In this document: piece after piece, positions 59,389-61,860 of the stretch
Layout: each line of letters starts with the position of its first letter
Position numbering within the stretch: position 1 is the stretch's first letter
Source: Escherichia coli
GTDB taxonomy: Bacteria > Pseudomonadota > Gammaproteobacteria > Enterobacterales > Enterobacteriaceae
Length of the DNA: 64,000 nucleotides
NCBI RefSeq assembly: GCF_017348835.2
Contig: NZ_CP071375.1
Strand: one strand, 5' to 3'
The notes under the pieces: generated by a model
Told to the model about the DNA's origin: nothing
Seen by the model: the letters and a program-made list of their open reading frames with translations, nothing else
Database searches by the model: none
Program-made: the position numbers and the translations under genes

Positions 59389-61860
59389 TTAAAAATCAGC
59401 CTGACTCGGGATCAGTTTTTGCCAGATAACTGAAACGTATTTTGCCTGATAACGGGCGTCATCAAGTGCATTATGGCGCTCACCTTCGAATGGAATAGCC
59501 GTTCTGGCATCGAAGTCTATGGCTTTCCCCAGCTCAACGATTGTGCGTACATCGCGATCGTTGTAGTAACGCCACGGGCAGGGGATCCCCTGCCGTTCGT
59601 ATGAACGGCGCAAAATCGTGTTATCGAAGTTGGCTCCATTTCCCCAGACCTGAACAAAAAATTCACCGGAGTTTTCGTCGATAAATTCCCGCAATTGTAA
59701 CAGTGCATCATCTAACGGGATTTCATCGGTCATAATGGCAGATTGCGCTTCGCGTGATTGCTTAAGCCACCATTTAATGGTGTCCCGATCAATGACTCCG
59801 CCAGCAGTTTCCAGATCGATAGTCTTACTAAATTCCGGTCCCATATCTCCGGTTTGCGGATCGAAAAATATTGCACCTATTGAGATGATCGGGGCATCAG
59901 GATTTTTTCCCATGGTTTCAAGGTCGATCATTAGATGGTCACACGTCCTGCTGGTGGATGTGATTTCTTGATGACCGTTCACCTTAATTGAGTGATCTGC
60001 CGTCTCGCCAGTTTCACTATCGCTGGCATGATGCTGATTGCCGCCAGTGTTCTCCTTGTGTGGATGTTCAGCGCCTTCCATTTTCTCCGGATCATCTTCC
60101 TGAACTTCAACCTGATACTCTTCATCGAATGTTTCCTGGTATGTTGCGTCGCCCATCACCGCGCCACAATCAGGGCAGTTGCCGCCGCCGGTCTGACCGC
60201 AGGCGGTGCAGGCTTTTTCCACTTCCTGTTGCGCCACTGGTTCAGGCTGTTTCGTTTCTGGCTCGTTTTGTAACGCATTTGGGCTGTTTTGTTCCGCTTT
60301 TTGGTAGTTCCGTTCCGATTCATGCTGGTTCTGGTTTACAGAATCGCGGGTCTGGATCCCCTTAACCCATTTCGGATCATTCGGGTCGCTAATCCCTGCA
60401 ACAAATTCTCCGCGAGAGGCAGCAAGCAACTTATCGGCGTCAGGCTGGCTGATATTGGCTGCCTGCATAATTTTGTTTACTTCGTCAGCGGTAACTTTTA
60501 CCGGCTCTGGTTGTGCGGTCGTGTCAGATGCACCAGTATTTTGTTGTGAACCTGAGTATGTACTGTTTTTGCGGGCGAAATATTCTTCTTTCGTGATTTC
60601 AGTAGCCCCGGCAGCCAGTGCCTTATCCAGACCAGAAAGTTTGTTTGCGCGACCGTATTTTTCGCCATCCTTGTCGGTGAAGAGGAAGTAGAACGGCCCC
60701 TCACGCTCTACAGATGGTTCGACTTCCACTTTGCATTCGGTTTTTTCGTTGTCCGGAATTGCCGTTTCCACTGCATCAGTTTCTGGTACTGGCGACGAGA
60801 GAGTATCAGTTGCGCTCTGATTTGTTCCTTCATCTTCAAACACGCCCTTTGTAGTCAGGTATTCAGTAATGTATTTGTTCAGTGCCACAGGGTCTTTGTG
60901 AATGTCGATCGGACGTTCACGGACAAGGCCAAAAATAGTCTGGCGGTCGTAGCGAAGGGCATCAGGCTGTTTGCGCATTGATGCCGAGATACGCTTCCAG
61001 TCTTCGCGGTCGTTGTCGATAACTTCATTTTTTGCCCAGCGATGGATGCTGCCGTCAATGTTTCCGGCATCCACATCACCAGGCCAGAGAGCGTAGGCCA
61101 GTTCGTCATCCAGTGTTTTCCATGTCTGCTTGTATTCGCGATGAATGGCAGCAATGACCGGGCTGATTTTTCCTGTTGAATTTTCAGTGTGCTGTTGATT
61201 GGTTCTGGCGCGGGCGAGATCAACAACAGACGTGTATTTTCCGGTTTCCTTGCGTTCACCTTCGCGACGTTTTTTCCAGATGCGCATCTCTGCCTGAATT
61301 TCGGGCCATTTGGCACCAGGCTTACATTTATGCTTAACCCACCCGATGGCATGCAGCTTAAGCTCCGGATACATGGCGTTAACTTCTGGCATTTTCATCA
61401 ACGCTTCAACGATATGTCCGTCGAATGTTGCCATGTCTTCCTGCAACAATTCCTGTGCGCTAATAACCATATCAACGGTGATGTTTTCACATGTGTCGAA
61501 CTTAACCATGACAGCGTTCTGTACTTCAGGGGCCAGCTTGTCAAAAGTGACGTTCATCGGATCTGATTCAGTCTCAACCGGAACAAAGGAAGCAGACTCC
61601 TCATCCCAGCGGTTTTCCTGCATATATTCAGCATCCCATGAATCGAGGGCAGGGCGGGGTATGCCAGGTTTATCCTCGCAGATAATAAATTTATAAGCGC
61701 AGTCCTGAGCAGCCGGATAATGTTCCAGGAATTGCCAGTGAAATTTTGCTCGAGCACGGCGTTCGTCGCCAGCTTCAATAGCTGTGGCTACAGCCACAGC
61801 GCCTTCTTCCCTTGTTGCCAGTTCGTCAGGAATGGCGGCGCAAATAAAGACTTTACTCAT
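59389..61860 (-). CDS. phage exonuclease of the family often annotated exodeoxyribonuclease VIII, with C-terminal DnaQ-like DEDDh 3'-5' exonuclease domain
   Basis: 823 aa; C-terminus carries Exo I (MIDLETMG), Exo II ([13 protein letters not shown]) and Exo III ([13 protein letters not shown]) motifs; central acidic/Gln-Pro-rich segment with Zn-ribbon-like [16 protein letters not shown]; sits in the exo/recE slot of a lambdoid early-left operon. Confidence 0.75.
   Translation of the reverse strand: [823 protein letters not shown]

Follow-up and report, generated by a model that had tools for sequence, protein, structure and literature searches.

An intact form of ydfE in an Escherichia coli lambdoid prophage, predicted to join a RecE-family scaffold to a DexA-like exonuclease head

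What kind of nuclease fills the exo/recE position of a lambdoid early-left operon in which no annealase gene is found, and what would such an enzyme do for its phage? The question is raised by a gene of 823 codons at 59389..61860 (- strand) in a 64,000-nucleotide stretch of the Escherichia coli contig NZ_CP071375.1 (hereafter referred to as the window). Among the large genes of the early-left operon it comes last, in a lambdoid prophage of the Qin/Rac type. Based on profile matches, alignments, and predicted structures, we conclude that its product consists of a RecE-family scaffold (amino acids [aa] 1-640) that bears a DexA-like DEDDh head instead of the PD-(D/E)XK head of RecE, and that the gene is the intact form of the K-12 pseudogene ydfE. 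The architecture and the predicted catalytic competence of the protein are held here with high confidence, while the role that we assign to it, DNA-end trimming alongside host recombination, is a best guess only.

A RecE-type scaffold and a DexA-like head

The gene is an uninterrupted open reading frame (ORF), preceded by a GAGG Shine-Dalgarno sequence 10 nt 5' of its ATG, and a match to PHROG 2082 spans residues 1-823 of 823. The sole match in a Pfam scan of the protein is to the Rv2179c-like 3'-5' exonuclease domain (PF16473) at aa 642-813 (59422..59937, - strand), with an E-value of 1.9e-67 and a score of 226.8 bits against a cutoff of 27, covering 176 of the 177 profile positions. This C-terminal head contains the motifs Exo I (MIDLET, with D646 and E648), Exo II (D746), and Exo III (HNALDD, with H796 and D801), the catalytic codons of which span 59458..59925 on the - strand (D646 59923-59925, E648 59917-59919, D746 59623-59625, H796 59473-59475, and D801 59458-59460). 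All five residues are invariant in an alignment of 24 sequences, where they correspond to D7, E9, D119, H186, and D191 of T4 DexA, and the pentad is unchanged across six clusters defined at 50% identity. A preliminary description of this DNA, made from its letters without database searches, had read DnaQ-like Exo I/II/III motifs rather than a PD-(D/E)XK fold into this region, and had pointed to a loss of the catalytic acidic residues as what would speak against that reading; both the PF16473 match and a careful alignment, in which every one of these residues is retained, agree with it.

The predicted structure (AlphaFold2, AF2) shows a DEDDh domain at aa 640-820 with pLDDT values above 90. When the head was used to search the sequences of the PDB, T4 DexA was the sole match (E 1.6e-6), with no direct phmmer match to Rv2179c, and a Foldseek search of the PDB also placed T4 DexA (8kel) at the top (E 3.8e-11), followed by RNase T, a Cas2-DnaQ domain, and Orn (probability 1.00). 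The RNase H-like fold of DEDD nucleases, the catalytic residues, and the profile match make it clear that the head belongs to the DEDDh/PF16473 family, and we infer that it is an active metal-dependent 3'-5' exonuclease. T4 DexA (PDB 8KEL/8KEN) shares with the head its Pfam family, fold, and identical catalytic residues, but it is only ~27% identical to it, and is a free-standing protein of 227 aa that has extra loops and lacks a RecE-like scaffold. The DexA residues W152 and D169, proposed to be involved in recognizing 5-hydroxymethylcytosine (5hmC), correspond here to Y766 and A780 respectively, with the mapping of D169 being uncertain in a gappy part of the alignment. Rv2179c of M. tuberculosis, the namesake of PF16473, belongs to the same Pfam family but is a small stand-alone exoribonuclease in a non-phage context. 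Closer in sequence are free-standing DnaQ-like exonucleases of lambdoid, P22-like, and N15-like phages, such as Bas106 gp31 and YDC107_1, which are 53-59% identical to the head and have the same motifs. Their genes are located within recombination modules or next to them, and for some phages close to int. They differ from the 823-aa protein in being single-domain proteins of 182-199 aa. In Bas106, an annealase is present, since erf, ssb, and abc2 flank the gene. The closest true free-standing homologue (59% identity) is located in a P22-type module of erf, ssb, endonuclease, exonuclease, and abc2. Apparently free-standing E. coli proteins of 180-183 aa that are 70-90% identical to the head were rejected as homologues of this kind, since they are ORF calls within frameshifted full-length genes.

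The scaffold, in turn, is shared in part with RecE. In a BLASTP comparison with K-12 RecE, aa 262-625 align to RecE 278-591 with an E-value of 4e-62, and the match is near-identical through a CxxC..CxxC element up to ETGE(T/V)AD, stopping at the start of the RecE nuclease domain; neither Pfam nor BLAST gave a match of the 823-aa protein to RecE aa 592-866. The likeness of the middle region to the RecE central segment had been put forward earlier, and this alignment substantiates it. Consistently, the NCBIfam model for exodeoxyribonuclease VIII (NF007259) matches aa 246-625 only, against positions 271-602 of 877 in the model, with 279 bits compared to a cutoff of 1269. RecE of the Rac prophage in K-12 occupies the same slot of the early-left operon and is similar in size (866 aa compared to 823 aa), and it shares with the 823-aa protein a YdfE_C-like helical domain, acidic disordered linkers, a conserved 20-residue motif, and the CxxC..CxxC element. 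It differs, however, in its head, which is of the PD-(D/E)XK type (5'-3'; PF12684) instead of the DEDDh type (3'-5'; PF16473), in its N-terminus, where it has Exonuc_VIII (PF06630) in place of the YdfE_N-type sequence that makes up the first 240 aa here, and in being followed by recT. Thus, among five features of RecE that we compared, the central scaffold is found in the 823-aa protein, and the other four (head type, N-terminal domain, full-length profile score, and recT partner) are not.

The N-terminal part connects the protein to another K-12 gene. Since aa 1-256 are 98% identical to the product of K-12 ydfE, a pseudogene (b1577) of the Qin prophage that is cut by IS2 and located downstream of dicF/dicB/ydfD, the 823-aa gene is intact ydfE. 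The two have the same upstream genes, and differ in that the IS2 insertion cuts K-12 ydfE after codon 256, so that the second half of the scaffold and the exonuclease head are lost.

AF2 models built with family alignments resolved four confident units upstream of the head (aa 1-100, 105-206, 245-340, and 388-432), separated by acidic linkers of low confidence. The first two make up a YdfE_N-type N-terminal module (aa 1-206; 61243..61860, - strand), with an alpha/beta part (aa 1-100) and a helical part (aa 105-206). The third is a YdfE_C-like helical domain (aa 245-340; 60841..61128, - strand; pLDDT >94) that BLASTP shows to be common to RecE aa ~278-336, and for which YdfE_C (PF27432) appears as a precomputed Pfam assignment on relatives. 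The fourth is a small domain consisting of a beta-hairpin and a helix (aa 388-432; 60565..60699, - strand; pLDDT 91-97). Beyond it, aa 433-640 are largely disordered in the prediction, except for a short ordered element at aa 471-500. Within this region, aa 462-625 (59986..60477, - strand) make up a mostly disordered central segment that is homologous to aa 440-591 of RecE and contains a short conserved motif (aa 474-497; 60370..60441, - strand), predicted with pLDDT 69-80 in an acidic linker whose flanks fall below 50. A CxxC-x6-CxxC element at aa 551-566 (60163..60210, - strand), modelled with low confidence, is also present in K-12 RecE but is optional, as several relatives lack it. No informative structural relative was found for the N-terminal scaffold.

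Interchangeable heads, recT, and Chi sites

To place the protein in its family, we searched exhaustively for homologues of aa 1-637 and classified the long members by BLAST against reference segments and by Pfam. The search returned only 250 clusters at 50% identity, and the family is therefore small. With aa 1-437 as the query, all of the matches listed were near-identical E. coli fragments. Two types of N-terminus occur in the family (YdfE_N and the RecE Exonuc_VIII domain, PF06630), together with at least three types of C-terminus, namely DEDDh (PF16473), PD-(D/E)XK (PF12684), and a third one that has no Pfam match. The third type is found in P0127, P0130, and others, whose C-termini match the PHROG families 2489 and 7838, both labelled 'exonuclease'. 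These are probably the 'RecE-2' proteins, for which Zheng et al. (2025; PMC12315714) describe the lack of a nuclease fold. In the contig of P0130 (L015, 5342-8974), a gene encodes a YdfE_N/YdfE_C protein with such a C-terminus, preceded by a Gam-like gene and followed by genes for Sipho_Gp157 and a DUF3268 zinc-finger protein and then by xis and int, a partner set different from that of both the RecT-type and the DEDDh-type loci.

The exchange of heads was most explicit in the hybrid P0129, which is 100% identical to K-12 RecE over RecE aa 1-277 and 91% identical over aa 278-439, and then continues into a DEDDh head that is 98% identical to that of the 823-aa protein. Its DEDDh-headed sisters P0142 and P0249 likewise carry PF06630, which has no match in the 823-aa protein. 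In the opposite direction, one of 80 RecE-head loci examined in IMG/VR (L101-L180) combines a YdfE_N-type N-terminus with a PD-(D/E)XK head and recT; therefore all four combinations of N-terminus and head occur in nature. The view of the protein as a domain-swapped mosaic, already voiced in the preliminary description, is in line with these arrangements, in which a scaffold common to RecE carries a replaced head. Substitution patterns point in the same direction. Compared to phage Evi, the synonymous divergence (dS) is ~0 over aa 245-461 and 0.97 in the head, while compared to phage Tritos it is ~0.5 over aa 341-461 and 0.03 in the head; because dS is so uneven along the gene, modules have been swapped by recombination inside it. 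Throughout these exchanges, the 20-residue motif LAAxRGE[FY]V[ED]GISDP[NT]DPKW remains the most conserved element of the RecE/YdfE family, K-12 RecE included, and is kept in DEDDh, PD-(D/E)XK, and nuclease-less members whose identity elsewhere is 25-40%. It resembles a docking peptide to which a partner would bind.

The type of head co-varies with the presence of recT. We ran tblastn with three RecT proteins, lambda Bet, an Erf, lambda Exo, Gam, Abc2, a phage single-strand-binding protein (SSB), and the RecE nuclease as queries, a panel that recovered its positive controls. No annealase, Exo, Gam, Abc2, SSB, or RecE-nuclease match was found at positions 57000-64000 of the window, in 27 kb of L001 (a complete genome whose prophage is 99.9% identical), in phage Tritos over its full 46 kb, or in any of five divergent DEDDh-type loci (L008-L012). 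The earlier observation that no RecT/Bet gene lies between the 823-aa gene and xis therefore holds for the 52-bp gap, which contains no gene, as well as for the surrounding DNA and the relatives. In IMG/VR, homologues of RecT, Bet, Erf, Exo, Gam, Abc2, or SSB were found in 0 of 80 DEDDh-head loci, while recT follows the gene in 80 of the 80 RecE-head loci, with a 4-nt overlap in 79. Of the DEDDh-head loci, 53 have a YdfE-type and 23 a RecE-type scaffold, the ORF is 811-830 codons long in 70, and host-shutoff genes are co-transcribed in 74 (dicB-ydfD in 72 and kilR in 2). The same division was seen among representatives at 50% identity, where the genes of the DEDDh-headed P0129, P0123, P0142, and P0249 are directly followed by xis and/or int, and those of the PD-(D/E)XK-headed P0199 and P0133 (L013 and L014) have a RecT-family gene overlapping their stop codon. 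The head swap thus accompanies the loss of recT, and head type and recT presence co-vary perfectly in these sets.

A lambdoid Rec module, as the term is used by Zheng et al. (2025), is recognized by a single-strand annealing protein with or without SSB or anti-RecBCD proteins, and neither the window nor L001 nor the complete Tritos genome yielded one. Tritos, for which neither an annealase nor an anti-RecBCD gene was found in the whole genome, has 11 Chi sites compared to 1.3 expected, a number that was reached in none of 100 shuffled sequences; nine of them are on the top strand, and eight of these nine are located at 27-43 kb, in the right half of the genome. The prophage part of L001 has nine Chi sites on the top strand and two on the bottom strand. 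A class of phages with no Rec module and high Chi has been tied to RecBCD-aided growth (Zheng et al., 2025; PMC12315714), and Tritos fits this class by its gene content and co-oriented Chi sites. The 823-aa gene itself contains a Chi site (GCTGGTGG) at 59950..59957 (+ strand), one of the many found in phages of this type, and a second one (GCTGGTGG) is located inside int at 58134-58141 (+ strand).

Regarding the maintenance of the gene, the ratio of nonsynonymous to synonymous substitution rates (dN/dS) is 0.26 for the whole gene, 0.02-0.19 for the folded domains and the motif (0.04 for the motif at aa 474-497, and 0.11-0.18 for the head), and 0.5-0.7 for the linkers. The folded domains are thus under purifying selection, and the linkers are relaxed. 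The gene is intact in phages that form plaques or were induced (Tritos, mEp460, HannyBb, and PhiR42_1), while frameshifted copies are present in PPompW prophages and in L181 and L184; it is maintained by selection in phages and dispensable in lysogens. Among 5426 complete E. coli genomes, 218 carry at least 80% of the segment 57000-64000 (the gene, int, xis, and the upstream neighbours), and 4897 match at least some part of it.

The prophage locus

Read leftward, the locus consists of a racR-like repressor gene, a promoter-like site, a DUF1391 gene, DicF, dicB, ydfD, the 823-aa gene, xis, and int, an order that agrees with the exo/recE position originally given to the gene. L001 has an identical gene order, and there the PGAP name for the 823-aa protein is 'exonuclease'. 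The promoter-like site (63182-63154, - strand), a sigma-70 type sequence with TTGACA and TATAGT separated by 17 nt and 11 of 12 consensus matches, is immediately downstream of the racR-like gene (63291-63767) and is probably the early-left promoter from which the DUF1391 gene, DicF, dicB, ydfD, and the exonuclease gene would be transcribed. It was the only strong site in our promoter scan, which gave none directly upstream of the 823-aa gene. Rfam identified the small RNA DicF (RF00039; 76.7 bits, E 4e-16) at 62505..62556 (- strand). It is flanked by the DUF1391 gene and dicB and belongs to the leftward operon that includes the exonuclease gene, a layout shared by K-12 Qin and phage Tritos. 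Next in order are dicB (62142-62330, - strand) and ydfD (DUF1482; 61954-62145, - strand), both supported by Pfam and by PGAP annotation.

Downstream of the 823-aa gene are an excisionase gene, xis (59058..59336, - strand; Pfam Exc, and named 'excisionase' by PGAP in L001), and a gene for a lambda-type tyrosine integrase (57971..59089, - strand; Pfam Arm-DNA-bind_1 and Phage_integrase). The integrase is intact here (372 aa), but its counterpart in strain 2013C-4974 (L001 20972-22091), whose prophage is 99.9% identical, carries an annotated frameshift. Homology to the K-12 chromosome stops at ~56959-56960, 22 bp within the 3' end of potB, which by this comparison is where the prophage is inserted. 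It divides the potABCD operon between potB and potC (56143-56937, - strand), and the last codons of potB are replaced by phage sequence. Between the attachment junction and int are two small rightward genes, one of which (57228-57449, + strand) encodes a 73-aa protein without a family match, and the other (57535-57894, + strand) a DUF2335 membrane protein that PADLOC matches weakly to PD-T4-6 (E 0.0014). Both may be accessory genes expressed in the lysogen.

A candidate role in DNA-end processing

We suggest, with a probability of roughly 0.45, that the 823-aa protein is a scaffold-tethered 3'-5' trimmer of DNA ends that works with host RecBCD and RecA rather than with a phage annealase. In such a scheme, the scaffold would deliver the DEDDh head to linear DNA ends during lytic growth. 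As phage annealase and anti-RecBCD functions are absent, the Chi-rich phages would depend on host recombination by RecBCD-Chi and RecA, and the head would trim 3' tails or flaps, leaving ends that RecBCD may load onto or that may serve as primers. This would be a helper role like that of T4 DexA in double-strand-break processing. DexA is a DNA 3'-5' exonuclease (PMC12153337), and DnaQ-like nucleases are known from lambdoid Rec modules and from positions near int (Zheng et al., 2025; PMC12315714). As for the scaffold, linear-linear recombination is reported to be boosted by full-length RecE and not by its isolated nuclease (Fu et al., 2012, as cited in PMC8314000), implying that the scaffold acts on linear DNA. 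The suggestion in the preliminary description, of a protein that may work by itself or on some other substrate, is kept here as a suggestion.

Several points weigh against this reading. The sequence does not tell a DNA from an RNA substrate, and Rv2179c, the founder of PF16473, is an exoribonuclease. Exonucleases of 3'-5' polarity usually depress homologous recombination (Zheng et al., 2025; PMC12315714). The targeting of ends by the scaffold is conjecture, as the N-terminal part is without an informative structural relative. Near-identical E. coli prophages make up most of both 80-locus censuses, so that their counts are not independent. Finally, the frameshifted copies in some lineages mean that the gene is dispensable for lysogeny.

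Other roles for the head were considered against the same evidence. The protein might be a nuclease of defence or superinfection exclusion, whose head degrades the nucleic acid of incoming phages and whose scaffold serves as an auxiliary or sensor domain; possible targets are modified DNA, by analogy to the DexA-like HREX protein EcD (NAR 2025), or the 3' ends of RNA phages, by analogy to the ISG20-like TONDOs (bioRxiv 2026). Like the 823-aa protein, these have DEDDh heads and are often borne by prophages. Expression of EcD, a DexA homologue of E. coli, gives protection against T4 (PMC12153337), and prophage DEDDh exonucleases with variable auxiliary domains, which in the TONDOs are of unknown function, act against MS2 and Qbeta (PMC13344964). 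Within the locus itself, the gene is the last before xis/int, where accessory genes are common, and its neighbour dicB is a prophage gene that protects against some phages. However, the gene belongs to a repressed early-left operon, and no promoter-like site of its own was found in the scan. The head stands exactly where a recombination nuclease would, and the closest of its free-standing relatives is encoded within a Rec module. The 823-aa protein is not EcD (HAK9828821.1), an identity that we tried and rejected based on the EcD cloning primers, according to which EcD starts with MIDTET and ends with TIPETYD. Nor does it have the HREX signature (equivalents of DexA W152/D169, with D90 lost), since Y766 and A780 stand in place of the 5hmC-recognition residues of DexA, and D718 preserves its tetramer residue D90. 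The TONDO candidates, compared here by description, are ISG20-related hits of less than 500 aa. PADLOC v2 gave a generic CRISPR-associated DEDDh match only (E 1.7e-5), with a 2023 library that is older than HREX and TONDO. Taken together, a defence function seems unlikely to us. We are somewhat more doubtful still of a host-takeover or anti-recombination nuclease, which would act early in lytic growth with dicB, ydfD, or kilR and degrade the 3' ends of host DNA; this could serve to scavenge nucleotides, as T4 DexA does, or to destroy the 3' tails used by RecA, thereby damping host recombination and the SOS response. The co-transcription with host-shutoff genes noted above (74 of 80 loci) would fit such a role, as would the general inhibition of recombination by 3'-5' exonucleases (Zheng et al., PMC12315714). 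T4 DexA has documented roles in host-DNA breakdown and scavenging and in intron homing (PMC12153337). On the other hand, a Chi-rich genome argues that these phages benefit from working RecBCD/RecA recombination, and a takeover role leaves unexplained the conserved and elaborate scaffold, which is common to the pro-recombination RecE. Host-DNA degradation for nucleotides is not known from temperate lambdoid phages.

An RNA substrate appears very unlikely. An Rv2179c-like RNA 3' exonuclease might trim the long leftward transcript, DicF precursors, or host and phage RNAs, and DicF is indeed encoded in the same operon. PF16473 is named after a 3'-5' exoribonuclease, PGAP often uses the name '3'-5' exoribonuclease', and RNase T and oligoribonuclease are close structural neighbours of the head. 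Nevertheless, the best match in both sequence and structure is the DNA exonuclease DexA, the head replaces a DNA nuclease on a DNA-recombination scaffold, and its free-standing relatives are found among erf, ssb, and abc2. In addition, there are kilR-type operons that carry the head, and in these no dicB or ydfD match was obtained by tblastn (DicF was not looked for). The least credible of these readings is that the gene is non-functional debris, a chance fusion produced by illegitimate recombination in decaying prophages. K-12 ydfE is indeed an IS2-truncated pseudogene, and frameshifts are present in the copies of PPompW and in several of those from E. coli. This reading is nonetheless contradicted by the selection data and already disfavoured: dN/dS is low in every folded domain, the head included, the catalytic pentad is invariant across six clusters, the fusion occurs on two N-terminal scaffolds and in several genera-level variants, and the gene is intact in plaque-forming phages.

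Extending the proposed end-trimming role to the whole family leads to a bolder idea, one that we consider improbable as it stands. The N-terminus of RecE/YdfE proteins may serve generally as a platform, either for targeting DNA ends or for binding a partner from the host, with heads being swapped on it and the 20-residue linker motif docking a conserved host protein. The heads would then be a 5'-3' PD-(D/E)XK nuclease working with RecT, a 3'-5' DEDDh nuclease working without an annealase, or a domain that is no recognizable nuclease. The DEDDh version would represent a third phage recombination strategy, in which a phage 3'-end trimmer feeds host RecBCD-Chi-RecA for recombination-dependent replication, and which would be neither a Red/RecET-like module nor the absence of one.

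The architecture itself is already catalogued, in PHROG 2082, in Pfam (YdfE_N and YdfE_C on relatives, and the Rv2179c-like domain), and in PGAP, and the names in use in databases include 'exodeoxyribonuclease VIII', 'exonuclease', '3'-5' exonuclease', and '3'-5' exoribonuclease'. The first of these, a frequent label, misleads the reader into expecting 5'-3' polarity and RecT as a partner. Our literature search found no published account of the function of the 823-aa protein. What we add is the identification of the gene as intact YdfE with a head swapped relative to RecE, the perfect co-variation of head type with recT presence, and the placement of the carrier phages in the Chi-rich class without a Rec module. 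The former identity of the K-12 pseudogene ydfE is thereby explained.

RecET and Red are the model phage recombination systems and the basis of recombineering. The mechanism of the N-terminal ~600 aa of RecE is not known, yet this part enables linear-linear recombination. In the proteins described here, the RecE scaffold is put to a second use in nature, with a nuclease of the opposite polarity and no annealase, in phages that apparently rely on RecBCD of the host and on Chi. As leads, the conserved motif of the linker and the scaffold, for which no structural assignment could be made, hold the most promise, and the family offers a natural experiment on the role of the scaffold and its invariant motif, as well as on how DNA ends are handled in lambdoid phages that lack an annealase.

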